Shown here: one piece after another, positions 5,446-51,522 of the stretch | Layout: each line of letters starts with the position of its first letter | Position numbering within the stretch: position 1 is the first letter of the stretch | Virus record (IMG/VR): IMGVR_UViG_3300041409_000458 | DNA: 52,958 nucleotides | Origin: a virus | Taxonomy: Duplodnaviria > Heunggongvirae > Uroviricota > Caudoviricetes | Reading direction: 5' to 3' (one strand) | Translations under genes and position numbers: made by a program | The notes under the pieces: model-generated | What the model was told of the DNA's origin: nothing | The model's input: only the letters and a program-made list of their open reading frames with translations | Databases searched by the model: none

Positions 5446-5886
5446 ATGGAAATATGGAAAGATATAATAGATTTTGAAGGTCGTTATCAAGTGAGTAATC
5501 TAGGAAGACTAAAAAGTCTGCAGGGAAATTTTCCCTCTAAACGAAAAGAGAAAATATTAAAATTATCTTTAAAGAATGGATATCCTAAAACTTTGCTATG
5601 GAAAGATAGTAAAGCTACAACAGCTCGTGTACATAGAGTAGTTGCATTTGCATTCCTAGATAATCCTTATAATAAACCCAATATAAATCACAAAGATGGA
5701 AATAGAGCAAATAATGTCGTTGAAAATCTTGAATGGTGTACTCAAAAAGAAAATATTCATCATTCAAGAAATATAACAAAAAATGGGTCAGTAATATCAT
5801 TACAAAAATTAACAGTATTGTATGAAGAGAATATTGACTTAGAACTTTCAGATTTTATCAGAAAAATAATTCCTCATTTTAACTAA
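5446..5886 (+). CDS. NUMOD4-HNH homing endonuclease
   Basis: NUMOD4 signature EIWKDIIDFEGRYQVSNLGRLKSL plus HNH_3-type VHRVVAFAF...INHKDGNRANNVVENLEWCTQKEN. Confidence 0.92.
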   Translation: MEIWKDIIDFEGRYQVSNLGRLKSLQGNFPSKRKEKILKLSLKNGYPKTLLWKDSKATTARVHRVVAFAFLDNPYNKPNINHKDGNRANNVVENLEWCTQKENIHHSRNITKNGSVISLQKLTVLYEENIDLELSDFIRKIIPHFN

Positions 5887-5891
5887 AATAT

Positions 5892-5993
5892 ATGAAACAA
5901 TCAAAAACAGACATATTGAATAAACTCATAAAAGAGTTAATCAAAGAAAACAAAAGACTAACCGAATATATTTTACTCCAAAAGAAAAAATAA
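5892..5993 (+). CDS. Possible 33-aa coiled-coil peptide
   Basis: ATG-started ORF MKQSKTDILNKLIKELIKENKRLTEYILLQKKK fills the gap between the HNH gene and the next promoter. Confidence 0.4.
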   Translation: MKQSKTDILNKLIKELIKENKRLTEYILLQKKK

Positions 5994-5994
5994 A

Positions 5995-6026
5995 TTTGGT
6001 AAATACAAATAATTGTTGTATATTTG
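5995..6026 (+). promoter_or_regulatory. Bacteroidota sigma-A-type promoter for leader 1 and tRNA block 1
   Basis: TTTG(5995-5998)-N20-TATATTTG(6019-6026). Confidence 0.8.
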
Positions 6027-6030
6027 CTTT

Positions 6031-6171
6031 ATGATACTTGATACAAACATATATGGAGGATGTGGCTGTGGGAAACCAAAGCCTAAGAAAGGTTTACGCC
6101 AGTGGCATACGCCAACCTGTACACAATGTCCGTTTGGATGTAGTGGGGGTCTCTGTATACGTACTAGTTAA
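6031..6171 (+). CDS. Putative attenuator leader peptide 1 (46 aa, MILDTNIYGGCGCGKPKPKKGLRQWHTPTCTQCPFGCSGGLCIRTS)
   Basis: Translated by hand. Codons 6097-6135 (RQWHTPTCTQCPF) match all nine tRNAs of the downstream block; the 3' end overlaps the antiterminator strand. Confidence 0.75.
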   Translation: MILDTNIYGGCGCGKPKPKKGLRQWHTPTCTQCPFGCSGGLCIRTS

Positions 6172-6222
6172 AATTCGTACAGTTCTATACAAAAGACCCT
6201 CTAGGAAACTAGGGGGTTTTTA
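6145..6222 (+). terminator. Attenuator 1: alternative antiterminator and intrinsic terminator
   Basis: Terminator AGACCCTCTAG-GAAA-CTAGGGGGTTTTT (6195-6222). GGGGGTCTCTGTATA (6145-6159) can pair instead with TATACAAAAGACCCTC (6186-6201). Confidence 0.8.
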
Positions 6223-6226
6223 ATTT

Positions 6227-6299
6227 CGAGATGTTGGCTAATTGGTAAGCCACTTGCTTTGGGAGCAAGAAGATGCAGGTTCGACCCTTGTCATCTCGA
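6227..6299 (+). tRNA. trnP: tRNA-Pro(TGG)
   Basis: Cloverleaf: CGAGATG/CATCTCG acceptor, CTTGC-ttTGGga-GCAAG anticodon arm, TTCGA T-loop. Confidence 0.93.
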
Positions 6300-6305
6300 C
6301 ATAAT

Positions 6306-6379
6306 GCTTCTTATGCAGATATGGTGCTGCACCTCACTTGTAATGAGGATTAGAGAGTTTTCGAGTAACTCAAGAAGCT
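6306..6379 (+). tRNA. trnT: tRNA-Thr(TGT)
   Basis: GCTTCTT/AAGAAGC acceptor; CCTCA-ctTGTaa-TGAGG; T-arm GAGTT-ttcgagt-AACTC. Confidence 0.9.
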
Positions 6380-6407
6380 CTAAACATAAAAGCCGAAGGG
6401 TAAATAT

Positions 6408-6821
6408 ATGAATACAGATAAAAAATCTGGGCAGCTAGGTATGCCACATGGTACAGCAAATGCAAGATTGCGTAAAGCTATTATTTTCAAACTTCTAAAA
6501 GATGCAAAGTTAAACTTTTGTTTTCAATGCTCTGCAGAAATTGATAAGATTGAGACTTTATCTATTGAGCACAAAATTCCTTACTTAGACTCGCATGACC
6601 CTAAAAAATTGTTCTTTGATTTGGATAATATTGCATTTTCTCATTTAAAGTGTAATATAGATGCAAGAAGGATACCTGAGAAAATAGTGGATAAGGATGA
6701 TTTTAGAGTTAAACATGGTAGGTCTACTTATGAAAGAAGAGGATGCAGATGTGATATTTGTAAGGAAGACAAGAGAATACATAATAGTAAAAGATTTAAT
6801 AATGGTCGTATGGCTGAGTGA
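6408..6821 (+). CDS. HNH endonuclease with C-terminal Cys-rich (CRCDIC) zinc-binding element
   Basis: CFQC...SIEHKIP...DNIAFSHLKCN; stop codon lies inside the 5' end of tRNA-Cys. Confidence 0.85.
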   Translation: MNTDKKSGQLGMPHGTANARLRKAIIFKLLKDAKLNFCFQCSAEIDKIETLSIEHKIPYLDSHDPKKLFFDLDNIAFSHLKCNIDARRIPEKIVDKDDFRVKHGRSTYERRGCRCDICKEDKRIHNSKRFNNGRMAE

Positions 6822-6878
6822 ACAAAGGCACACGTCTGCAAAACGTTACAATCGTCAGTTTGAATCTGACTACGACCT
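6804..6878 (+). tRNA. trnC: tRNA-Cys(GCA)
   Basis: GGTCGTA/TACGACC acceptor; CACGT-ctGCAaa-ACGTT; T-arm GTCAG-tttgaat-CTGAC. Confidence 0.9.
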
Positions 6879-6886
6879 CAAGGTTT

Positions 6887-6946
6887 CCGGAATGAAGAAT
6901 GCCACTTGTTGAGAAGTGATGGTCAGTCCATCAGTGAAAAATCCGG
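6887..6946 (+). ncRNA. Candidate structured RNA (three-way junction), unclassified
   Basis: CCGGA/TCCGG closing stem enclosing the CACTT/AAGTG and ATGG/CCAT hairpins; sits between two tRNAs. Confidence 0.4.
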
Positions 6947-6952
6947 GTTTAT

Positions 6953-7024
6953 GGTGATGTAGCTCATCGGTAGAGCGAAGCCCTGAAGAGGCTTGCGTGG
7001 GGAGTTCGATTCTCCCTTTCACCA
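6953..7024 (+). tRNA. trnF: tRNA-Phe(GAA)
   Basis: AAGCC-ctGAAga-GGCTT; GGGAG-ttcgatt-CTCCC; acceptor has one T-T mismatch. Confidence 0.9.
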
Positions 7025-7030
7025 CATAAC

Positions 7031-7140
7031 AGCTCTTGGTCCGTGGGTGTTGAAAAACGTGATAACGGACCTCCAAAGTAGTAGTACAGCACTCAAAGAC
7101 GTACATTCACTGGATAGCCTCAGCCATAAATCGAGGCAAC
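7031..7140 (+). ncRNA. Candidate structured RNA (three hairpins, possible kissing loops), unclassified
   Basis: GGTCCGT/ACGGACC, TCCA..GTAC/GTAC..TGGA and GCCTC/GAGGC stems; loop GGGTGTT is complementary to loop AGCACTC. Confidence 0.5.
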
Positions 7141-7142
7141 AC

Positions 7143-7215
7143 ACGGGTGTAGCTCAGCTGGTAGAGCTTTGGTCTCCAAAACCAAGAGTCAGGGGTTCGA
7201 GTCCTCTCATCCGTG
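7143..7215 (+). tRNA. trnW: tRNA-Trp(CCA)
   Basis: ACGGGTG/CATCCGT; TTGGT-ctCCAaa-ACCAA; canonical D and T arms. Confidence 0.94.
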
Positions 7216-7220
7216 CATAT

Positions 7221-7291
7221 TGCTCCATGGTGTAATGGTAACATCAGACTCTTTGACAGTCAAGTTATAGGTTCGAGTCCTATTGGAGTAA
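7221..7291 (+). tRNA. trnQ: tRNA-Gln(TTG)
   Basis: TGCTCCA/TGGAGTA; AGACT-ctTTGac-AGTCA; ATAGG-ttcgagt-CCTAT. Confidence 0.92.
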
Positions 7292-7298
7292 CATATAT

Positions 7299-7369
7299 TG
7301 CGATATTGTGTAACGGTAGCACACGGGTCTCTGAAGCCCTTAGTTGGAGTTCGAATCTCTGTATCGCAA
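7299..7369 (+). tRNA. trnQ: tRNA-Gln(CTG)
   Basis: TGCGATA/TATCGCA; CGGGT-ctCTGaa-GCCCT; TGGAG-ttcgaat-CTCTG. Confidence 0.92.
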
Positions 7370-7371
7370 CT

Positions 7372-7447
7372 GTGGTATTAGCTTAGCTGGTTAAAGTATC
7401 TGATTGTGATTCAGAGGACACGGATTCGAATTCCGTATATCACCCCA
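7372..7447 (+). tRNA. trnH: tRNA-His(GTG), CCA encoded
   Basis: GTGGTAT/ATATCAC; TCTGA-ttGTGat-TCAGA; C73 discriminator followed by CCA. Confidence 0.93.
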
Positions 7448-7448
7448 T

Positions 7449-7522
7449 GCAGAATTAGTTTAATGGAAAAACACTTCGCTACGAACGAAGAGATATGTAG
7501 AGTTCGAATCTCACATTCTGCT
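7449..7522 (+). tRNA. trnR: tRNA-Arg(ACG)
   Basis: GCAGAAT/ATTCTGC; CTTCG-ctACGaa-CGAAG; T-stem has a bulged A. Confidence 0.88.
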
Positions 7523-7532
7523 CAAAAATAAA

Positions 7533-7564
7533 TTTGGTAGATAGGAATTAATTTCGTATATTTG
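7533..7564 (+). promoter_or_regulatory. Bacteroidota sigma-A-type promoter for leader 2 and tRNA block 2
   Basis: TTTG(7533)-N20-TATATTTG(7557-7564). Confidence 0.8.
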
Positions 7565-7582
7565 TATTCTAAAGCATAGAAC

Positions 7583-7705
7583 ATGATAACAGGATTAATA
7601 ATCGGTGGAATTGTGGGATTCGTAATTGGAGCACTTGTTTTCCGTAACAATGCTAAACAGGGAGAAAAAATTATAGATAAACTTAAAAAGACAGAAAGCA
7701 AATAA
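7583..7705 (+). CDS. 40-aa single-pass membrane peptide (MITGLIIGGIVGFVIGALVFRNNAKQGEKIIDKLKKTESK)
   Basis: Hydrophobic Gly-rich N-terminal helix and basic tail; TAATG overlap with leader 2. Confidence 0.7.
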   Translation: MITGLIIGGIVGFVIGALVFRNNAKQGEKIIDKLKKTESK

Positions 7706-7788
7706 TGTACAACTTAAATATGATAGTGGATAGAATGATTGGGGCGAACGAGAAATCGGCTCCGGGATTCCTATTGGCTGTCATGTAA
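7705..7788 (+). CDS. Putative attenuator leader peptide 2 (27 aa, MYNLNMIVDRMIGANEKSAPGFLLAVM)
   Basis: Starts in a TAATG overlap. Codons 7717-7755 (NMIVDRMIGANEK) cover all ten amino acids of tRNA block 2; the next codons form the antiterminator strand. Confidence 0.75.
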   Translation: MYNLNMIVDRMIGANEKSAPGFLLAVM

Positions 7789-7844
7789 TAAAAGATATTA
7801 CCACCAAAAAGAGTCCCGGAGCCCACAAAGCTTCGGGATTTTTT
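7758..7844 (+). terminator. Attenuator 2: alternative antiterminator and intrinsic terminator
   Basis: GGCTCCGGGATTC (7758-7770) pairs over 13 bp with GAGTCCCGGAGCC (7811-7823); this excludes the terminator TCCCGGAGC-ccacaaa-GCTTCGGGA-TTTTTT (7814-7844). Confidence 0.85.
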
Positions 7845-7851
7845 ATTAAAT

Positions 7852-7924
7852 ACCGTCGGAGCTTATGTGGACAAGCTGCACTCTTTTAAAGTGAGGACAA
7901 AGGGTTCGAATCCCTTGGGCGGTA
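7852..7924 (+). tRNA. trnK: tRNA-Lys(TTT)
   Basis: GCACT-ctTTTaa-AGTGA; AAGGG-ttcgaat-CCCTT; G-G mismatch at acceptor pair 7. Confidence 0.87.
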
Positions 7925-7927
7925 CAA

Positions 7928-8000
7928 GCTTCTATAGCTCAATAGGTAGAGTAATGAGCTCTTAACTCATGGGTTTTCGGTTCGAGTCCGAATGGAAGCA
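7928..8000 (+). tRNA. trnK: tRNA-Lys(CTT)
   Basis: GCTTCTA/TGGAAGC; ATGAG-ctCTTaa-CTCAT. Confidence 0.93.
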
Positions 8001-8016
8001 CAAAAGTTCTTAAAAA

Positions 8017-8048
8017 TTTGGTAGATTAAGAGTTTTTTCGTATATTTG
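8017..8048 (+). promoter_or_regulatory. Bacteroidota-type promoter upstream of HNH gene
   Basis: TTTG(8017)-N20-TATATTTG(8041-8048); ATG 4 nt later. Confidence 0.75.
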
Positions 8049-8052
8049 TTCT

Positions 8053-8400
8053 ATGAAGAATCCAACAAAAGAACAAACAAAGGAGTGGAATAGAACATAC
8101 TATCTTAAAAACAAAGAGAAAAGGAGAGCACAGTATAACAGAACCAGAAAAGAAATAGCTGAATGGTTCAGAGAATACAAGAAAACTCTCAGTTGTAAAA
8201 TCTGTGGTTTTGCTCATCCTACAGCCTTATCGTTCCATCATAGGAAAGGTGAGAAAAAATTAGGAGAGGTCTCTGTGATGGCATGGGATGGAGCAAGAAA
8301 GAAATTAGAGAATGAGATTGCAAAATGTGATGTATTATGTCATAATTGTCATGCCATACATCATTATGATGAGAGAAATAAAGATGCCTCTTTAGCTTAG
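8053..8400 (+). CDS. HNH endonuclease
   Basis: CKICG...ALSFHH...EIAKCDVLCHNCHAIHH; stop codon lies inside the 5' end of tRNA-Val. Confidence 0.9.
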   Translation: MKNPTKEQTKEWNRTYYLKNKEKRRAQYNRTRKEIAEWFREYKKTLSCKICGFAHPTALSFHHRKGEKKLGEVSVMAWDGARKKLENEIAKCDVLCHNCHAIHHYDERNKDASLA

Positions 8401-8460
8401 TTGGTTTAAAGCGTCTGCCTTACAAGCAGAAGACCATCCGTTCGAATCGGATAAGAGGTA
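8386..8460 (+). tRNA. trnV: tRNA-Val(TAC)
   Basis: GCCTCTT/AAGAGGT; TCTGC-ctTACaa-GCAGA. Confidence 0.93.
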
Positions 8461-8465
8461 CAGAT

Positions 8466-8539
8466 GGAGCCATCGTTTAATGGATTAGGACCTTTGTTTC
8501 CTAAACAAAGATGTGTCAGTTCGAGTCTGACTGGCTCTA
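8466..8539 (+). tRNA. trnR: tRNA-Arg(CCT)
   Basis: GGAGCCA/TGGCTCT; TTTGT-ttCCTaa-ACAAA. Confidence 0.93.
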
Positions 8540-8546
8540 CAAATAT

Positions 8547-8619
8547 GCACCCGTCGTTCAATGGATTAGGACAACTGCCTTCTAAGCAGTTTATAGCAGT
8601 TCGAATCTGCTCAGGTGTA
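8547..8619 (+). tRNA. trnR: tRNA-Arg(TCT)
   Basis: GCACCCG/CAGGTGT (one mismatch); ACTGC-ctTCTaa-GCAGT. Confidence 0.9.
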
Positions 8620-8662
8620 CAAGGTCAGTTAATGTTTCTGCGTGGAGTTAAAAAACATATTC

Positions 8663-8736
8663 GTCTGAGAAGCTTAAGTGGTATAAGCTACTGCCTGTTA
8701 AGCAGAAGATAGGAGGTTCGAGCCCTCTCTTGGACG
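8663..8736 (+). tRNA. trnN: tRNA-Asn(GTT)
   Basis: GTCTGAG/CTTGGAC, G discriminator; ACTGC-ctGTTaa-GCAGA. Confidence 0.88.
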
Positions 8737-8744
8737 CAATTATA

Positions 8745-8820
8745 CGCAGGGTAGGGAAGTGGTCATATCCTTCAAGGCTCATAACCTTCGAGAACGCTGG
8801 TTCGAATCCAGCCCCTGCAT
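8745..8820 (+). tRNA. trnfM: tRNA-Met(CAT), initiator-like
   Basis: C1-A72 mismatch (CGCAGGG/CCCTGCA) typical of fMet tRNA; ctCATaa loop; only two G-C pairs adjoin the anticodon loop. Confidence 0.82.
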
Positions 8821-8826
8821 CTAAAT

Positions 8827-8900
8827 TGGGTATTAGAATAGTGGTCTAATTCACTACTCTCATAAGGTAGCATTCACCAGTTCGAATCTGGTATACCCAA
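8827..8900 (+). tRNA. trnM: tRNA(CAT): elongator Met or lysidine-modified Ile2
   Basis: TGGGTAT/ATACCCA; CTACT-ctCATaa-GGTAG; Met versus Ile2 cannot be resolved by eye. Confidence 0.85.
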
Positions 8901-8918
8901 CAATTGTTCTAAAATATA

Positions 8919-8950
8919 TTTGGAATTGTGAGAAATATTTGGTATATTTG
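8919..8950 (+). promoter_or_regulatory. Bacteroidota-type promoter upstream of HTH-HNH and YkuK genes
   Basis: TTTG(8919)-N20-TATATTTG(8943-8950). Confidence 0.75.
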
Positions 8951-8967
8951 TATTAAATATTCGAACA

Positions 8968-9558
8968 ATGAAATTAGATAGGGATGAAGTATATAAACTT
9001 TTAGATGAAGGGAAGAAACCAGTAGAAGTTGCAAGAATCTTAGGTTGTGTAAGATCTGTTATATCTTACTATAAATCTCAAAGAAATTCACCTAAAAGAA
9101 AAGGAAACAATATACCTTTAACTATAAAACAAAAGGGAAAAATTAATGAACTTTATATTGAAGGAAAAGCTTTTAATGAGATAAGAGAAATAACAGGCTT
9201 TTCACTTCAAACAATTAGAAAATATCTTATAGTTCCAAAAAGATTAAAACAAAAGAAAAGAAGAACAATTTATTTTCTTAAATGGAGACTTCGTAAGAAA
9301 GCAATTCTTGTTGATTATAAAGGTGGAAAGTGTGAAGATTGTGGATATGATGAATGTATAGAAGCTCTACATTTTCATCATCTTAATCCTAAAGAAAAAG
9401 AGTTTAATGTTTGTGGAAAGTCAGTATCTATTGAAAAACTAAAAAAGGAAGCAGATAAATGTGTACTTTTGTGTGCTAATTGTCACATTAAGAGACATAA
9501 TTGTAAAACCTGTACAGAAGCCTTAGAAGAAGGTAAAAAATTTAGAGATAGAGAATGA
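8968..9558 (+). CDS. HNH endonuclease with two N-terminal HTH-like segments
   Basis: KPVEVARILGCVRSVISYY and AFNEIREITGFSLQTIRKY helices; CEDCGY...ALHFHH...KCVLLCANCHIKRH. Confidence 0.9.
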   Translation: MKLDRDEVYKLLDEGKKPVEVARILGCVRSVISYYKSQRNSPKRKGNNIPLTIKQKGKINELYIEGKAFNEIREITGFSLQTIRKYLIVPKRLKQKKRRTIYFLKWRLRKKAILVDYKGGKCEDCGYDECIEALHFHHLNPKEKEFNVCGKSVSIEKLKKEADKCVLLCANCHIKRHNCKTCTEALEEGKKFRDRE

Positions 9559-10031
9559 CAAAATATTTCAGAAAAAAGGATGGTGAGTTAGTCAACATAG
9601 TTGAACACACTTTAGAGCAGATTCAGCAGAATCCGAATGTCAAGATATACATTGGAACGGACAGTCAAGACGAAGGTCCATGCAGTGAATATGCAACTTG
9701 TATAGTATACAGATATGGCAGAAACGGAGCACACTTCATCTACTCAAGAGAGTCAGTTCCAAGGATTTGGGATATGTTCACTCGTCTGTACACAGAAGGT
9801 ACACGTACCATTGAAGTTGCAGAATTGATAAGAGCAGAAATTCTTTCTATAAATTTTGAAGCACTTGAGTTCGATTACGCTGATGTTAAGAAGACTCTTT
9901 CCACTCGTGTAGTGTCAGCTTTGAGAGGGTGGGTAAAAGGAATGGGTTTGAATGCTTCTTTCAAAGGTGGAGAGAAAATAGCAACAAAGTCTGCTGACCA
10001 CGTATGTAGACACAAAGAAATGTATAAATAA
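9555..10031 (+). CDS. RNase H-like YkuK (DUF458) family protein
   Basis: VKIYIGTDSQ...YATCIVYRYGRNGAH...RLYTE...EVAE...K...ATKSADH pattern matches the YkuK family as I recall it. Confidence 0.8.
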   Translation: MTKYFRKKDGELVNIVEHTLEQIQQNPNVKIYIGTDSQDEGPCSEYATCIVYRYGRNGAHFIYSRESVPRIWDMFTRLYTEGTRTIEVAELIRAEILSINFEALEFDYADVKKTLSTRVVSALRGWVKGMGLNASFKGGEKIATKSADHVCRHKEMYK

Positions 10032-10035
10032 ACAT

Positions 10036-10083
10036 GGCGAGTTGAAAGGGAATCCACAGTGGGGACACTGCCCCTCGCCTCCA
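10036..10083 (+). ncRNA. Candidate 48-nt structured RNA ending in T-CCA
   Basis: GGCGAG/CTCGCC, GGG/CCC and CAGTG-GGGA-CACTG stacked helices with two 6-nt 5' bulges. Confidence 0.45.
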
Positions 10084-10084
10084 C

Positions 10085-10157
10085 GCAGTAGTAGCTCATC
10101 TGGTAGAGCACTATCCTTCCAAGTTAGGGGCGGCAGGTTCGAGTCCTGTCTACTGCA
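10085..10157 (+). tRNA. trnG: tRNA-Gly(TCC)
   Basis: GCAGTAG/CTACTGC; ctTCCaa loop; T-T mismatch in the anticodon stem. Confidence 0.9.
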
Positions 10158-10162
10158 CAATT

Positions 10163-10234
10163 GCAGGTGTAGCACAACGGTTAGTGCATCGGCTTGCCAA
10201 GTCGAGGATAAGAGTTCGATTCTCTTTATCTGCT
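10163..10234 (+). tRNA. trnG: tRNA-Gly(GCC)
   Basis: GCAGGTG/TATCTGC; TCGGC-ttGCCaa-GTCGA; U discriminator. Confidence 0.93.
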
Positions 10235-10239
10235 CTTAA

Positions 10240-10313
10240 CATGCGTTCGACAAGTGGTCTAAGTCGTCATCCTTTCAAGGTGATATTCACGGGTTCAAAT
10301 CCCGTACGCATGA
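10240..10313 (+). tRNA. trnE: tRNA-Glu(TTC)
   Basis: CATGCGT/ACGCATG; TCATC-ctTTCaa-GGTGA. Confidence 0.92.
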
Positions 10314-10314
10314 C

Positions 10315-10430
10315 AATGTAGTAGCTAATGCTGATATAGTTATTCGAAGGTCAGAGGATTTTCCAGCATTTCCAATCTGACACTAGCCAGAGATGTGATG
10401 GGCACTTCGACAATGACTACTACATTACCA
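10315..10430 (+). ncRNA. Candidate ~116-nt structured RNA ending in A-CCA, unclassified
   Basis: 10-bp terminal stem AATGTAGTAG/CTACTACATT, internal TCGAAG/CTTCGA and GTCAGA/TCTGAC stems; flanked directly by tRNAs. Confidence 0.55.
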
Positions 10431-10503
10431 CGAGGTATGGTTGAATGGTTACAATGCCGGATTGTCAATCCGTGCGGTACGGGTTCGAATCCCGTTATCT
10501 CGG
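10431..10503 (+). tRNA. trnD: tRNA-Asp(GTC)
   Basis: CGAGGTA/TATCTCG, G discriminator; CCGGA-ttGTCaa-TCCGT. Confidence 0.92.
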
Positions 10504-10508
10504 CAAAT

Positions 10509-10582
10509 GCATCTATAGCTCAACTGGTCGGAGCAGGACGCTTATATCGTCAAGGTTTTCAGTTCGAATCTGAATAGATGTA
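10509..10582 (+). tRNA. trnI: tRNA-Ile(TAT)
   Basis: GCATCTA/TAGATGT; GGACG-ctTATat-CGTCA; UAU anticodon is rare in bacteria. Confidence 0.88.
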
Positions 10583-10583
10583 C

Positions 10584-10886
10584 ATGAAAAGCAAAGATTT
10601 TGCAAGAACAAGAACAAGAAATAGAAACTTTGTTAGGGACTATTTATCTAAGCATCCTTGCACTGATTGTGGGAACAATAACATTGTTGTATTGGACTTC
10701 GATCATGTGAAAGGAGAAAAGAAAGCAAATATCTCCAAGATGGTCTCTAATGGAACTTCTTTAGTTTCTCTCTTGAGGGAAATAGAGAAATGTGAAGTTA
10801 GATGTGCCAATTGTCACAGAATTGTTACACATCAGAGAAGATTGCAGGAAAGACCTAAAGAAGGAATTGATTATTTTGAATATTAA
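10584..10886 (+). CDS. HNH endonuclease between the two tRNA-Ile genes
   Basis: CTDCG...LDFDHV...EIEKCEVRCANCHRIVT; ATG at 10584 preferred because 10578 lies inside the tRNA. Confidence 0.88.
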   Translation: MKSKDFARTRTRNRNFVRDYLSKHPCTDCGNNNIVVLDFDHVKGEKKANISKMVSNGTSLVSLLREIEKCEVRCANCHRIVTHQRRLQERPKEGIDYFEY

Positions 10887-10887
10887 T

Positions 10888-10960
10888 GCAGGTATAGCTC
10901 AGTTGGTAGAGCAACGTCCTGATACGACGTAGGTCCAAGGCTCGAATCCTTGTATCTGCA
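10888..10960 (+). tRNA. trnI: tRNA-Ile(GAT)
   Basis: GCAGGTA/TATCTGC; ACGTC-ctGATac-GACGT; T-loop CTCGAAT (C instead of T54). Confidence 0.9.
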
Positions 10961-11022
10961 CAAGAAATAACCTCTGGTATAGAAGCACACCATTGCGTGA
11001 TTGGTTAAGTTATTTCGTCCAT

Positions 11023-11095
11023 GGGGGTGAAGCACAAGTGGACGTGCAACAGCTTTGCAAGCTGAAGGTTGAGGGTTCGAAGCCCTTCATCTCCA
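11023..11095 (+). tRNA. trnA: tRNA-Ala(TGC)
   Basis: GGGGGTG/CATCTCC with the G3-U70 Ala identity pair; ttTGCaa loop. Confidence 0.93.
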
Positions 11096-11146
11096 CAATT
11101 GTAGAAAAAATACCACATTATTGTAGAAGAAATACAACATTAAAAA

Positions 11147-11178
11147 TTTGGTTTTTTCTAAAATATTTTTTATATTGT
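11147..11178 (+). promoter_or_regulatory. Bacteroidota-type promoter (degenerate -7 element)
   Basis: TTTG(11147)-N20-TATATTGT. Confidence 0.6.
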
Positions 11179-11197
11179 ACTTATAAAACATTTAATT

Positions 11198-11383
11198 ATG
11201 TCAATACTTACAATTTTAGTCGTACTGGTAGTAGCAGGAGTTGCTTTATACTTAATCAACAGGTTCATACCTATGGATGGTAAAGTGAAGACAATTCTTA
11301 ATTGGGTTGTTATAGGTGCTTTAGTCCTTTGGTTACTTAAAGGGTTAGGTATCTTATCATTTCTAAGTAATGTACATGTGTAA
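11198..11383 (+). CDS. Small two-helix membrane protein (Thivi_2564-like)
   Basis: 61 aa; ILVVLVVAGVALYLINRFIPMDGKVKTILNWVV pattern. Confidence 0.75.
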   Translation: MSILTILVVLVVAGVALYLINRFIPMDGKVKTILNWVVIGALVLWLLKGLGILSFLSNVHV

Positions 11384-11394
11384 AATATAGTACA

Positions 11395-11715
11395 ATGGCA
11401 TTCATAAACAAGACAATTGTAAACATCTATGTATCTCCTGATATGAAGGTACTGGATATTATTAACTCTAAACTTGATAAAATCATGGCAGAACAGACAG
11501 AATTAGCAGCTCAGCTGGAAGCATTAAGCACTCAGCTTGACAAGGTTGCAGGTGAAATCATGGCTAAAGTAGATGCTCTTGAAGCAGCCTTTGATGCAGC
11601 CGATGACGTAACACCAGAAGTTCAAGCAGCCTTTGATGCTCTTAAAGCAAAAGTTCAGGTACTGGATGACCTAAATCCAGACACCCCTGAGACAACTGAA
11701 GCTCCTGAAGCTTAA
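11395..11715 (+). CDS. Acidic Ala-rich coiled-coil protein
   Basis: 106 aa with heptad-like ELAAQLEALSTQLDKVAGEI...; followed by a terminator. Confidence 0.75.
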   Translation: MAFINKTIVNIYVSPDMKVLDIINSKLDKIMAEQTELAAQLEALSTQLDKVAGEIMAKVDALEAAFDAADDVTPEVQAAFDALKAKVQVLDDLNPDTPETTEAPEA

Positions 11716-11720
11716 ATTTT

Positions 11721-11746
11721 AACCCCAGTTTTCACTGGGGTTTTTT
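11721..11746 (+). terminator. Rho-independent terminator
   Basis: AACCCCAG-ttttca-CTGGGGTT followed by TTTT. Confidence 0.85.
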
Positions 11747-11761
11747 CATTTTAAAAATTAA

Positions 11762-11793
11762 TTTGGTTTTCAGCAAAAAAGTCCGTACCTTTG
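11762..11793 (+). promoter_or_regulatory. Bacteroidota-type promoter
   Basis: TTTG(11762)-N20-TACCTTTG(11786-11793). Confidence 0.72.
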
Positions 11794-11883
11794 AGTTGTT
11801 ATTTTGTATTTGCATCCGGATTATGTCCGAGACCAGTATAATGCTGGGAAGATGTTGGTACTTAAAAGAAGTAACGCAAATAT

Positions 11884-12678
11884 ATGTTCACATCAACAGT
11901 AGCTCCCACCACGGGAGAGGCATTTATTGCCGTAAAGAAAAACAGGGTAAGGTCATATCCAACAAACCTAGCCAACATTAACAACAGTGTTTATCTCTCT
12001 GACAAACAAGAGTTTGAGATTGAGCTTAACAACCCTTCCACATCCACAAAACTTGCCAAAATCTCCATTAATGGTAAGCAAATTTCATCATCAGGTATAG
12101 TTTTAAAGCCGGGACAGAGGGCTTATATCGAGAGATATATTGATACTCCTCGAAAGTTCCAGTTTGAAACCTATGTAGTAGACAACAATCCATCAGTCAC
12201 AGCTGCAATTCAGCAAAATGGTCTGATAAAGGTATCTTTCTATGATGAACATGTTCCACCAGCACCCGTTTATTTTGACTGGAATTCTATGGTAGGTTCT
12301 TCTGCTCAGAATGTAAATTATCTGAATCAGAGGGACTCAAACATACGTTCCATGGATTTTATGCATGATGGTGCTGCAACCATGTCTATGTTCTCCTCAA
12401 GAGTAGGAGATAATGCAGCATTTGACCGTGTAAAGAAGTCAATCCCTACACAAAAGGAAACAGGTAGAATTGAACAAGGAGATGTCTCTAACCAGACATT
12501 CACTAACTATTCAGGAAGCTTCAATAGCTGGAGTACAAATACAGTGAAAATTAAGTTACTTCCTTTCTCTGAAAAACCTCTAGAGGTAAATGAGATATCT
12601 CAGTATTGTACAGAATGTGGGACTAAGAACAAAAGTGGTAAATACAAGTTCTGTCCAACCTGTGGAAACAAGTTCTAA
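11884..12678 (+). CDS. Hypothetical protein with beta-rich N-terminal domain and C-terminal zinc ribbon
   Basis: 264 aa; CTECG...KFCPTCG at the C-terminus. Confidence 0.8.
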   Translation: MFTSTVAPTTGEAFIAVKKNRVRSYPTNLANINNSVYLSDKQEFEIELNNPSTSTKLAKISINGKQISSSGIVLKPGQRAYIERYIDTPRKFQFETYVVDNNPSVTAAIQQNGLIKVSFYDEHVPPAPVYFDWNSMVGSSAQNVNYLNQRDSNIRSMDFMHDGAATMSMFSSRVGDNAAFDRVKKSIPTQKETGRIEQGDVSNQTFTNYSGSFNSWSTNTVKIKLLPFSEKPLEVNEISQYCTECGTKNKSGKYKFCPTCGNKF

Positions 12679-12684
12679 AATAAA

Positions 12685-12716
12685 TTTGGTTATTTCAAAA
12701 TACTTTCGTATATTTG
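12685..12716 (+). promoter_or_regulatory. Bacteroidota sigma-A-type promoter for leader 3 and tRNA block 3
   Basis: TTTG(12685)-N20-TATATTTG(12709-12716). Confidence 0.8.
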
Positions 12717-12758
12717 TATTCCAATCAGGGTTTGACCAAGTAGGCAACCTAAAAACTG

Positions 12759-13115
12759 ATGGATAAACATATGAAAAGTCAAATTAAAGTAGATTTCACC
12801 GATAGAGGTGAAGGAAAAGGTTTAGAGCCAGTTATTGCTATTAAGTTAATAGACAGTGATGATGTAAGAGATGGTCTTTTAAAGACATTTTTTCAATCTT
12901 TGGGAGGAGAGAGTTCTTGGTTATCAGTTTCCTTTGACCACCACATAATAAATGGTGAAAGTGACAAGACAACCTATATTAGAGTTTTTCCGATTCAATC
13001 ACACGAATTAGCTGAAACTGCAGAAAGAATAGATAGCAGGATATCAGGCAGAATAGGTTCTACAGGTCCTAATAACTGTAATCCAATAACAAATTCAACA
13101 GGTTACAAATTATAA
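12759..13115 (+). CDS. Hypothetical protein, translationally coupled to leader 3
   Basis: 118-aa ORF; TAATG overlap at 13113-13117. Confidence 0.7.
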   Translation: MDKHMKSQIKVDFTDRGEGKGLEPVIAIKLIDSDDVRDGLLKTFFQSLGGESSWLSVSFDHHIINGESDKTTYIRVFPIQSHELAETAERIDSRISGRIGSTGPNNCNPITNSTGYKL

Positions 13116-13186
13116 TGAAAACAATAACATCATATTATTCCAGTTTATCACTCTTGATTAAAAGTCGAGCTGGAAGAACTATGTAA
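13115..13186 (+). CDS. Putative attenuator leader peptide 3 (23 aa, MKTITSYYSSLSLLIKSRAGRTM)
   Basis: Codons 13130-13156 (SYYSSLSLL) match the downstream Leu/Ser/Ser/Tyr tRNAs; the 3' codons form the antiterminator strand. Confidence 0.75.
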   Translation: MKTITSYYSSLSLLIKSRAGRTM

Positions 13187-13238
13187 AGAAGAAATTTCTT
13201 TTTTCACCCTCCAGCAGCAATGTTCGGAGGGTTTTTTT
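13169..13238 (+). terminator. Attenuator 3: alternative antiterminator and intrinsic terminator
   Basis: Terminator ACCCTCC-AGCA-gcaa-TGTT-c-GGAGGGT-TTTTTT (13206-13238); GCTGGA(A)G (13169-13176) can pair instead with CTCCAGC (13209-13215). Confidence 0.75.
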
Positions 13239-13242
13239 ATTT

Positions 13243-13327
13243 GGCCCTTTGGTGGAATGGTAGACACGAGGGACTTAAAATCCCTTGCTCAGAAATGGGC
13301 GTGTGGGTTCGAATCCCACCTTGGTCA
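13243..13327 (+). tRNA. trnL: tRNA-Leu(TAA), acceptor stem imperfect
   Basis: AGGGA-ctTAAaa-TCCCT, long variable arm, GTGGG-ttcgaat-CCCAC; acceptor GGCCCTT/CTTGGTC has three inner mismatches. Confidence 0.78.
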
Positions 13328-13336
13328 CAATTATAA

Positions 13337-13422
13337 GGAAGGTCCCAAAGGAGAGGTACACTGTCTTGAAAACAGCTAGGTCGGTGATGAGCCACGTAAG
13401 AGTTCGAGTCTCTTACCTTCCG
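13337..13422 (+). tRNA. trnS: tRNA-Ser(TGA)
   Basis: GGAAGGT/ACCTTCC, G discriminator; ctTGAaa loop; long variable arm. Confidence 0.88.
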
Positions 13423-13427
13423 CACAA

Positions 13428-13512
13428 GGAGAGTTGCCAGAGTGGCTATTGGAGCAGTTTGCTAAACTGTGGTCGTTTATTCGGCCCATGAGTTCGAATC
13501 TCATACTCTCCG
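13428..13512 (+). tRNA. trnS: tRNA-Ser(GCT)
   Basis: GGAGAGT/ACTCTCC; GCAGT-ttGCTaa-ACTGT; long variable arm. Confidence 0.92.
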
Positions 13513-13518
13513 CTACCT

Positions 13519-13589
13519 GAGTCAGAGGTCAGGGCAACCAGCAATGACTGTAAATCATAGGCACGAGAGTTCGATTCTCTCCTAACCCA
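13519..13589 (+). tRNA. trnY: Atypical or degenerate tRNA-Tyr(GTA)
   Basis: ATGA-ctGTAaa-TCAT arm and GAGAG-ttcgatt-CTCTC T-arm are clear; short D region, no long variable arm, two acceptor mismatches; 5' end uncertain (13519 or 13526). Confidence 0.6.
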
Positions 13590-13941
13590 CTTTTTCTCTG
13601 TGATACTTCTGTCTGTAGTATCTTCTACCATTACCTTTAGAGGTACTATGTCCTTTCGTCAATGAATGACAGTTTGGACAAAGAAGAGTTAAATTATTTT
13701 CAGAATGATTCATTGAATTTCCGTCTATATGTTCTACCTCTAGAGGAATACTATTGGTAGTAGGATTTAGTTTAGACCATTCACATAGAGTACATTTACT
13801 CTCATACTTTTCAAATAGGTATTTTCTTACATGGTCAGAAACCTTTCCATGACCTTGTAAATCTCCTTTCCCACCTGTTACTTCTCCATCTTTCCACTTT
13901 TGGATATATTCCTCATATCCATATCTTTTTAGTTTTTTCAT
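13582..13941 (-). CDS. HNH endonuclease (only supported minus-strand gene)
   Basis: CTLCEW...PLEVEHIDGNSMNHSENNLTLLCPNCHSLT; its last codons and stop overlap the tRNA-Tyr 3' acceptor strand. Confidence 0.9.
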   Translation of the reverse strand: MKKLKRYGYEEYIQKWKDGEVTGGKGDLQGHGKVSDHVRKYLFEKYESKCTLCEWSKLNPTTNSIPLEVEHIDGNSMNHSENNLTLLCPNCHSLTKGHSTSKGNGRRYYRQKYHREKVG

Positions 13942-13945
13942 ACTA

Positions 13946-13977
13946 CTAATATACGAAGAATAATTAACAAATCCAAA
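13946..13977 (-). promoter_or_regulatory. Bacteroidota-type promoter for the minus-strand HNH gene
   Basis: Reverse complement reads TTTG-N20-TATATTAG, with ATG 4 nt downstream. Confidence 0.65.
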
Positions 13978-14089
13978 TAACGTTCACTGGACGTTAGATG
14001 TTTTGTTTGTTAACACTATCTTAACAATAAATAATAGGTTTTGCTTGCAATTAGCGGTAGATTTGTGTATCTTAATTAAAAACGATAAC

Positions 14090-14929
14090 ATGATAACTAG
14101 AGCACAAGTCAAAACATTCCTATTAACTAAACGGGGATACATTAAGAAATCTCCAGCCAATGTAGCTGGAGCTATCTGGTTAACACAACCTCACACAGGA
14201 GCAAAGAAGACGACATCTGAGATAACGAAAGAGTTAACCTTAATAAGAGATGTCCAGACTACATTACGTTCAGCATCATCCTATATTGCCTCTAAGGAGG
14301 AAACAGACATGATAGACATGTATGATAGGATTATGGAACAGAAGAATCGTCCTAAAACCAAGCTTTTCTTTGATATTGAAGTATCTCCGGATATAGTATT
14401 ATCATGGGGTATTGGAAGGAAAGTATCATTAAGTCATGATTCAATTATTCAGGAAAGAGCAATTATTTGTATATGCTGGAAGTGGGCCGGAGATGATAAA
14501 GTTTACTCTCTAAAGTGGAACAATGGGTGCGATAAAGAGATATTACAGAAATTCGCTAAGATAGTAGATTCAGCAGATGAGCTTATAGCTCAAAATGGAG
14601 ACAATTTTGACATTAAATGGGTTAGGACTAGGTGTATCTATCACAATATCCCTATAAGCCCTAAATTCAACTCTATTGATACCCTCAAGATGGCAAGGCA
14701 AGGGTTCCGTTTCAATGCTAATAGGCTTGATTACATGGGAAAATTCCTTGGATTTGGAGGTAAAATAGAAACTAATTATGATATGTGGAAGGATATTCTC
14801 CTTAGAAATGACAATAAAGCAATGAAATTAATGGTGGATTACTGTAAGGAAGACGTTGTTCTCCTTGAAAAAGTCTATAACAAACTACAGCAATATTGCC
14901 CAATAAAGAAGTTTCGATATAAACTCTAG
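14090..14929 (+). CDS. DnaQ/RNase H-like (DEDD, YprB-type) 3'-5' exonuclease
   Basis: LFFDIEVSPD (ExoI), AQNGDNFDIKW (ExoII), YCKEDVVLLEKVY (ExoIII); ATG at 14090 preferred to the TTG start at 14003. Confidence 0.87.
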   Translation: MITRAQVKTFLLTKRGYIKKSPANVAGAIWLTQPHTGAKKTTSEITKELTLIRDVQTTLRSASSYIASKEETDMIDMYDRIMEQKNRPKTKLFFDIEVSPDIVLSWGIGRKVSLSHDSIIQERAIICICWKWAGDDKVYSLKWNNGCDKEILQKFAKIVDSADELIAQNGDNFDIKWVRTRCIYHNIPISPKFNSIDTLKMARQGFRFNANRLDYMGKFLGFGGKIETNYDMWKDILLRNDNKAMKLMVDYCKEDVVLLEKVYNKLQQYCPIKKFRYKL

Positions 14930-51439: not shown

Positions 51440-51471
51440 TTTGGTAAAGACAAATAAATGTCTTATATTGT
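51440..51471 (+). promoter_or_regulatory. Bacteroidota-type promoter (degenerate -7 element) for the tail-fibre gene
   Basis: TTTG(51440)-N20-TATATTGT. Confidence 0.55.
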
Positions 51472-51522
51472 CTTTAAGATACTGATATCACTCTAATATA
51501 TCAGAAATAAGATATATAAACT

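Follow-up and report, generated by a model that had tools for sequence, protein, structure and literature searches.

A putative leader-peptide attenuator in front of a Leu/Ser/Tyr tRNA block in a tailed phage

In a tailed phage with a 146.7-kb genome record, a block of Leu, Ser and Tyr tRNA genes is preceded by a short ORF with nine consecutive codons for the same three amino acids, an intrinsic terminator, and upstream helices that exclude one another. This element is likely to gate the tRNA block as a transcription attenuator of the ribosome-mediated, leader-peptide kind known from trp and his, a function that is inferred in the absence of expression, 3'-end or ribosome data. The phage probably makes its Leu, Ser and Tyr tRNAs mainly while cognate codons are being decoded slowly, again an inference made without expression data. 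A preliminary description of this DNA had read the element as an attenuator; the structural predictions of that reading are all met and are conserved in five related phages, leader translation and stall-dependent read-through being inferred. The element is called leader 3 here, since leaders 1 and 2, which share its architecture, stand before the other two tRNA blocks of the same phage.

Phage tRNA genes are commonly seen either as a fixed complement to codon usage or as replacements for host tRNAs lost to cleavage, and to our knowledge the control of their expression has hardly been addressed. A full-text literature search found no account of leader-peptide or attenuator control of tRNA genes or of phage tRNA clusters.

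Genomic setting

The window, i.e. the whole stretch of 52,958 nt that was analysed, is AT-rich phage DNA (36 % G+C) with 26 tRNA genes, all on the + strand between 6227 and 13513 (ARAGORN). Promoter motifs of the Bacteroidota type (TTTG, about 20 nt, TAnnTTTG) recur across the tRNA array. An extended form of this motif, AAATTTGG N17-20 TATATTKK, is found five times in the window, always on the + strand and only in the tRNA region, while shuffled sequences lead one to expect none. Its copies lie at 5992, 7530, 8014, 11144 and 12682, and several window genes begin 4-7 nt after it, so that their mRNAs would be nearly leaderless. One bona fide gene of this phage, the HNH gene at 8053, starts 4 nt after the -7 box, much as the leaders of the relatives do. 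The exonuclease gene near the array has its closest cultured homologues in Flavobacterium phages (51 % identity); from these homologues and the type of promoter motif, a Bacteroidota host is inferred.

The features upstream of and within the leader are as follows.

12685..12716, + strand: promoter of the Bacteroidota type, with -33 box TTTG at 12685-12688 and -7 box TATATTTG at 12709-12716
12759..13115, + strand: ORF of 118 aa, function unknown, whose stop overlaps the leader start (TAATG)
13115..13186, + strand: leader ORF of 23 codons plus stop, with ATG start, encoding MKTITSYYSSLSLLIKSRAGRTM and open in six phages
13130..13156, + strand: regulatory run of nine Ser/Tyr/Leu codons (boxes UCN, AGY, UAY, UUR, CUN)

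The promoter at 12685..12716 is the nearest one 5' of leader 3 in this phage. In the window, leader 3 lacks a dedicated promoter and relies on the upstream 118-aa ORF, the reality of which is unknown; this ORF belongs to no Pfam family and has no relative in viral contigs. The two reading frames are coupled as previously described, the TAA at 13113-13115 of the upstream ORF overlapping the leader ATG at 13115-13117. Compared with the related phage L100 (3439-3485), where the leader 3 promoter directly follows tRNA-Ala, the window contains about 2 kb of extra genes (11144-13115), which encode a 61-aa membrane peptide, a 106-aa coiled-coil protein, a 264-aa zinc-ribbon protein and the 118-aa ORF.

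The leader ORF and its codon run

A short translatable ORF upstream of the regulated genes is the first thing required of a leader-peptide attenuator, and here this criterion is met by an ORF with conserved start, frame and stop, the translation of which is inferred. A cluster of cognate regulatory codons is required as well and is present, with nine Leu/Ser/Tyr codons in the window and 11-12 in the relatives. In the window these read TCA TAT TAT TCC AGT TTA TCA CTC TTG from 13130 to 13156 within the ATG-started frame, as had been claimed. The earlier match between this run and a downstream Leu, Ser, Ser and Tyr block also holds in that all four anticodons are present, with the proviso that the Ser(UGA) and Tyr-like genes score below the Rfam cut-offs. 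The leader ends in ATG TAA (13181-13186), which is indeed how leader 2 ends at 7783-7788.

Two codons of the run, CTC and TCC, account for only 7 % and 9 % of their respective Leu and Ser codon families in this phage and are the rarest, or nearly the rarest, of them. It can be inferred that they act as sensitive sensors, being rare and requiring U:C wobble with the phage tRNAs.

Terminator and alternative RNA structures

An attenuator further needs an intrinsic terminator that separates the leader ORF from the genes it controls, an antiterminator that shares a strand with this terminator, and an anti-antiterminator that lies under the regulatory codons. The segments concerned are listed below.

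13131..13146, + strand: region 1, the 5' strand of the anti-antiterminator, inside the codon run (CAUA 13131-13134 and UUCCAGUUU 13138-13146, from minimum-energy folds)
13167..13183, + strand: region 2 (GAGCUGGAA 13167-13175 and UAUG 13180-13183), which pairs either with region 1 or, via GCUGGA 13169-13174, with region 3
13185..13204, + strand: spacer hairpin AAAGAAGA/UCUUUUUU, enclosed by the antiterminator
13206..13238, + strand: intrinsic terminator, made up of region 3 (13206-13216, with UCCAGC at 13210-13215), a GCAA loop, region 4 (13221-13232, with one bulged C) and a U tract (13232-13238)

The terminator is the strongest of these structures. Its hairpin (13206-13232) has 11 pairs and one bulge, is followed by seven U, and folds with -15.8 kcal/mol (z -5.8), an energy reached by none of 200 shuffles; the criterion of an intrinsic terminator between leader ORF and tRNA genes is met. 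Owing to the bulge it was missed by a simple terminator scan, and RNAfold with shuffles was used instead. The tRNA-Leu gene starts only 4-5 nt further on, and no promoter is predicted in this gap. With neither room nor motif for a promoter after the terminator, the tRNAs of the block can be made only by read-through of the terminator.

The antiterminator had been described as weaker, with a short core and an apical hairpin, and this is what is found: the helix GCUGGA:UCCAGC encloses the spacer hairpin with a z score of -2.1, eight of 200 shuffles folding as well. When the codon run is masked and the transcript is ended before the 3' arm of the terminator, GCUGGA (13169-13174) pairs with UCCAGC (13210-13215) to give -13.2 kcal/mol in total. 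The comparison of folding energies suggested in the preliminary description shows an alternative to the terminator, and the required antiterminator sharing a strand with the terminator is present, if weak in the window. The same description did not mention region 1, the location of which within the codon run completes the classical layout of exclusive 1:2, 2:3 and 3:4 helices. Neither the 1:2 nor the 2:3 helix of the window is more than modestly better than those of shuffled sequences (z about -2.1).

Without translation, the RNA is predicted to form the 1:2 helix, the spacer hairpin and the terminator. A ribosome at the stop codon covers region 2 and leaves the terminator as the only possible fold. 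With a ribosome stalled on the full transcript of the window, the terminator state (-19.9 kcal/mol) is still more stable than the antiterminator state (-13.2 kcal/mol), and the switch must therefore be a kinetic one. Kinetic trapping is likewise required in the trp attenuator. A control with shuffled spacers showed that pairing to the terminator arm alone is frequent by chance. Since the number of terminator-arm bases paired upstream does not discriminate the element from shuffles, reliance is placed on the conserved register and on compensatory changes among the relatives.

Homologous leaders in related phages

Relatives were found via synteny of the exonuclease gene and via DNA patterns. This gave five distinct homologous leaders, all from uncultured phages: L100, L012 (the same phage as L086 and L097-L099), L009 (= L094), L093 and L214 (= L215). 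Only three of the 75 exonuclease loci (L009, L011, L012) were syntenic, and scanning viral and metagenome contigs for further patterns yielded nothing beyond L093, L100 and L214. Close DNA relatives among cultured phages amounted to tRNA matches only, and the 264-aa ORF led to eight loci, none with tRNAs. No copy of the codon run was found in bacterial assemblies, which consequently offer no clue to the host. L069, a GC-rich phage with 31 tRNAs, was considered as a further case and set aside: it has no such leaders, and the gaps in its array hold HNH genes.

The start of the leader (ATG-AAR/AAT), its frame and its stop are kept in all six phages, and the aligned differences are whole-codon indels; the two other frames mostly contain stops. 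The relatives' peptides carry Leu/Ser/Tyr runs of 11-12 residues. Apart from whole-codon indels and one synonymous TTA-to-CTA change, the codon run is identical in the six phages. Identity elsewhere is 33-83 % in the leader flanks, 30-70 % in the spacer and terminator, and 56-89 % in the neighbouring Leu and Ser tRNA genes. Nowhere else in the locus is conservation as high as in the run, not even in the tRNA genes, and codon identity together with 1:2 pairing may not fully explain this degree of conservation.

All six sequences can adopt the same three folding states, and the terminator stands at the same place in every relative. The folding energy of the antiterminator lies between -11 and -24 kcal/mol; that of L214 is about as stable as the terminator state. 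Four versions of the 2:3 helix are found (GCUGGA:UCCAGC, GCUGGGG:CCCCAGC, GAGAUUGGGA:UCCCGAUCUC and GAGAAUGGG:CCCAUUCUC), in which double changes keep the pairs; these compensatory changes lend support, at the level of sequence comparison, to the predicted antiterminator helix. The 1:2 helix comprises 13 pairs according to RNAalifold, 11 of which hold in all five aligned sequences, while each of the other two is lost in one sequence through a whole-codon gap or a U-U mismatch. Masking the run frees region 2 in six out of six folds, by which the criterion of an anti-antiterminator under the regulatory codons is met. The parts of the element, the mutual exclusivity of its helices and their conservation can be taken as established.

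The immediate context of the leader varies. A promoter motif directly precedes it in L100, L012 and L009, where the -7 box and the ATG are 5-8 nt apart. L214 has a TAATG junction like that of the window and a different upstream ORF, and in L093 the leader follows a 5' untranslated region of about 190 nt. This L093 region (2480-2675) holds a stretch resembling a tRNA anticodon arm, GGTCTTAAAATTC, which may be left over from a tRNA. L012 and L009 each have an insertion between the terminator and the tRNAs, an HNH gene that brings its own promoter, and the gate is thereby bypassed in these two phages. Directly after the L009 terminator (7613-7660) lies the 5' half of a tRNA-Leu(UAA) gene up to the anticodon loop, cut by the inserted promoter and HNH gene; beyond this insertion, both Leu(UAG) and Leu(UAA) are present as complete genes. 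L011 has lost leader 3 and the tRNA block jointly.

The tRNA block

Downstream of the terminator, the window contains four tRNA genes or tRNA-like sequences, of which ARAGORN calls only Leu(taa) and Ser(gct).

13243..13327, + strand: tRNA-Leu(UAA), called by ARAGORN; 43.4 bits against the Rfam tRNA model, with three marked non-pairs
13337..13421, + strand: tRNA-Ser(UGA), its D region unusual; scores 24 bits with the tRNA-Sec model, below the Rfam cut-off
13428..13512, + strand: tRNA-Ser(GCU), called by ARAGORN; Rfam score 50.4 bits
13526..13589, + strand: tRNA-Tyr(GUA)-like sequence without D arm or long variable arm; Rfam score 21.5 bits, below the cut-off of 29

The tRNA-Leu(UAA) gene starts at about 13242/13243, right behind the U tract. 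The base of its acceptor stem has 2-3 non-pairs (GGCCCUU versus CUUGGUC), where the stems of L100 and L012 are fully paired. For Ser(UGA), an alignment of five phages shows compensatory changes at 13 of 19 pairs and an invariant anticodon loop, and this covariation supports the view that the predicted window gene is real. The Tyr-like gene retains five of seven acceptor pairs and shares the anticodon loop CUGUAAA with the canonical Tyr tRNAs of L012 and L093; its 3' end is overlapped by the stop of an HNH gene on the - strand (13582-13941). Both the Leu(UAA) gene and the Tyr-like gene of the window deviate from the canonical form, and they may be impaired.

In every relative the block contains Leu(UAG), Leu(UAA), Ser(UGA) and Ser(GCU), to which L214 adds Leu(CAA). 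A canonical type II Tyr(GUA) is present in L012, L093 and L214, a shortened Tyr-like gene in L009, and none was seen in L100. Across the six phages, block 3 consists of exactly the class II tRNAs, i.e. those with a long variable arm (Leu, Ser, Tyr). The CTC codon of the leader had been taken as a hint that an ancestral block carried another Leu isoacceptor, and the search of relatives for extra Leu tRNAs proposed at the time bears this out: tRNA-Leu(UAG) occurs in the block of all five, as the first gene in L100 and L093 and as the second, after Leu(CAA), in L214. The whole 146.7-kb genome of the window phage has no Leu(UAG) tRNA. With this tRNA in all relatives and missing here, the invariant CTC codon is a relic of a fuller block, and the stem defect of tRNA-Leu(UAA) may be the scar of the deletion that removed Leu(UAG). 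Five tRNAs are ascribed to the ancestral block (Leu-UAG, Leu-UAA, Ser-UGA, Ser-GCU and Tyr-GUA), and the five codon boxes of the run correspond to them.

Sister leaders and phage phiCbK

Homologues of leaders 1 and 2 in L012 and L011 have kept their amino-acid composition and not the order of the residues, which argues for sampling of codons and against a function of the peptide itself.

A comparable arrangement is found in the Caulobacter phage phiCbK (JX100813), where short ORFs rich in cognate residues are each followed by an annotated terminator and then by a tRNA block. One of them, gp083 (49540-49677), contains a run of 14 residues made up only of Pro, Lys, Leu, Ala and Ser; the terminator lies at 49745-49769, and the block behind it encodes Pro, Lys, Leu, Ala and Ser tRNAs (ARAGORN). 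A second, unannotated ORF (…RQFVRQIQVV…) precedes the terminator at 51465-51502 and Phe, Val, Ile and Gln tRNAs. The likeness to the window element lies in the same order of parts: ORF, terminator, tRNA block. However, phiCbK is an unrelated phage from a different host phylum, with other sequences and other tRNA groupings, and the alternative folds were not compared. The phiCbK genome paper makes no mention of attenuation (PMC3556154). In gaps of the phiCbK array (L212, 3545-3630 and 4110-4200) there are Ser(GCU)-like and Tyr(GUA)-like sequences that seem to be unannotated; the genome paper states that a Tyr tRNA is absent (PMC3556154).

Comparison with known systems

The enterobacterial attenuators (trpL, hisL, leuL, thrL, pheL, ilvGMEDA) share with the phage element a short leader ORF in which regulatory codons are clustered, four regions that form exclusive 1:2, 2:3 and 3:4 helices with region 1 under these codons, and an intrinsic terminator with U tract just before the regulated genes; in the multivalent ilvGMEDA leader, several amino acids are likewise sensed together (PMC1183508, PMC3082878). 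In contrast to these systems, the targets of the phage element are tRNA genes rather than biosynthetic enzymes, and its output would replenish what is being sensed, namely decoding capacity, instead of the amino acid. It is moreover phage-borne, its host is probably a member of the Bacteroidota, and in relatives the leader starts as little as 5-8 nt after the -7 box. The classical scope of leader-peptide attenuation, i.e. targets in amino-acid biosynthesis or aminoacyl-tRNA synthetases, is the one criterion not met, since the downstream genes are tRNAs: the mechanism fits the attenuator family, and the targets are outside its described scope.

The E. coli pheST operon with its pheM leader is a leader-peptide attenuator for a component of the translation apparatus that responds to cognate charged tRNA. 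Its likeness to the phage element is that a translation-apparatus target is controlled by the supply of cognate charged tRNA, but pheST encodes a synthetase and not tRNAs, senses a single amino acid, and is cellular instead of viral. T-box riboswitches (RF00230) also choose between terminator and antiterminator before translation-related genes in response to tRNA status. They differ in binding uncharged tRNA directly and needing no translation, whereas the phage element has a conserved ORF. An Rfam scan of positions 5500-14500 gave no match to the T-box or any other riboswitch family at E values up to 1.

Alternative explanations

That an AT-rich open frame with a Leu/Ser/Tyr run should have come to lie beside a terminator by mere chance is scarcely credible, even if these three amino acids are encoded by 14 of the 61 sense codons and account for 18.6 % of the codons in the long ORFs of this phage. 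With all six frames of the window counted (about 105,900 codon positions), there are three runs of at least nine such residues, the other two being in non-coding frames; for the 130 nt before the block, in three frames, this amounts to an expectation of about 0.004. Chance also fails to account for a run that is conserved in six phages. As an empirical null, 788 short ORFs were collected upstream of tRNA blocks at 110 other viral loci that share the Ser(GCU) anticodon arm and scored as (ORF length - run + 1) x f^run. The window leader reaches about 4e-6 and that of L012 about 2e-8, and none of the 788 control ORFs comes near the window's score, the best being at 4.9e-5. No convincing codon-matched leader was found in these 110 loci, which served as the negative control.

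Two further explanations were considered. It could be an RNA switch independent of translation, in which the conserved 27-30 nt bind a protein, a tRNA or another RNA and the ORF is incidental; this we regard as unlikely without being negligible. The run is more conserved than the tRNA genes, synonymous positions included, which goes beyond the obvious need of a codon sensor, and the alternative helices exist whatever masks region 1. An incidental ORF would, however, not be expected to retain its start, frame and stop in six phages whose leaders differ by whole-codon indels and whose other frames are mostly interrupted by stops, and the conserved stretch consists of exactly the codon boxes that are read by the downstream tRNAs. 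The lack of a T-box or other riboswitch match speaks against such a switch too, as do leaders 1 and 2, since a fixed binding site would not allow composition to be kept without order. It is also improbable that the terminator is simply a constitutively leaky one, with fixed read-through, at the end of an upstream operon in which the mini-gene encodes a functional small peptide unrelated to tRNAs. Small hydrophobic peptides are common in phages, the window ORF is coupled to the upstream gene like an ordinary operon member, and its antiterminator is weak, all of which would suit this explanation; yet the residues outside the run vary freely, compensatory changes maintain the 2:3 helix in every relative, and region 1 sits within the codon run. 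Nor would a leaky terminator lead one to expect the match between run and block to recur in all three leaders of this phage and in phiCbK.

Proposed mechanism

If the element is a ribosome-mediated attenuator, transcription would start from the promoter near 12685-12716 and a ribosome would translate the 23-codon leader. When Ser, Tyr and Leu codons are decoded fast, the ribosome would reach the neighbourhood of the stop codon and cover region 2, upon which the terminator at 13206-13238 would form and the transcript would end 4-5 nt before tRNA-Leu. When cognate charged tRNAs are scarce, the codons at 13130-13156 would be decoded slowly, and the stalled ribosome would cover region 1 and leave region 2 free. 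Before the polymerase has made the 3' arm of the terminator, region 2 could then pair with the 5' arm, and the polymerase would read into the tRNA genes. In the absence of translation, the 1:2 and 3:4 helices would form and lead to termination. The signal might be a shortage of host tRNAs, either during infection or after a tRNA-targeting defence, or else a shortage of amino acids. Translation of the leader, the kinetic coupling of ribosome and polymerase in the presumed Bacteroidota host, and the nature of this physiological signal are all inferences.

A wider proposal is that leaders 1-3 form a three-channel sensor, which splits all 20 amino acids among three tRNA operons, with the class II tRNAs in the channel described here. 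Such a sensor would detect which host tRNAs are limiting, e.g. after host shut-off or an anticodon-nuclease defence, and replace only those, as a demand-driven counter-defence loop that would have arisen independently in unrelated phages such as phiCbK. This remains tentative, and we consider it possible and by no means probable.

Implications

The hypothesis can be tested in a cultured system, because phiCbK of Caulobacter has the same layout. A short leader of this kind could serve as a natural and portable sensor for the availability of particular tRNAs. If the attenuator interpretation is true, leader-peptide attenuation, a textbook mechanism, extends to a new class of targets, and the speed of decoding itself feeds back on the supply of tRNA in these phages. 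This would also explain why the tRNA arrays are split into blocks with fixed membership.
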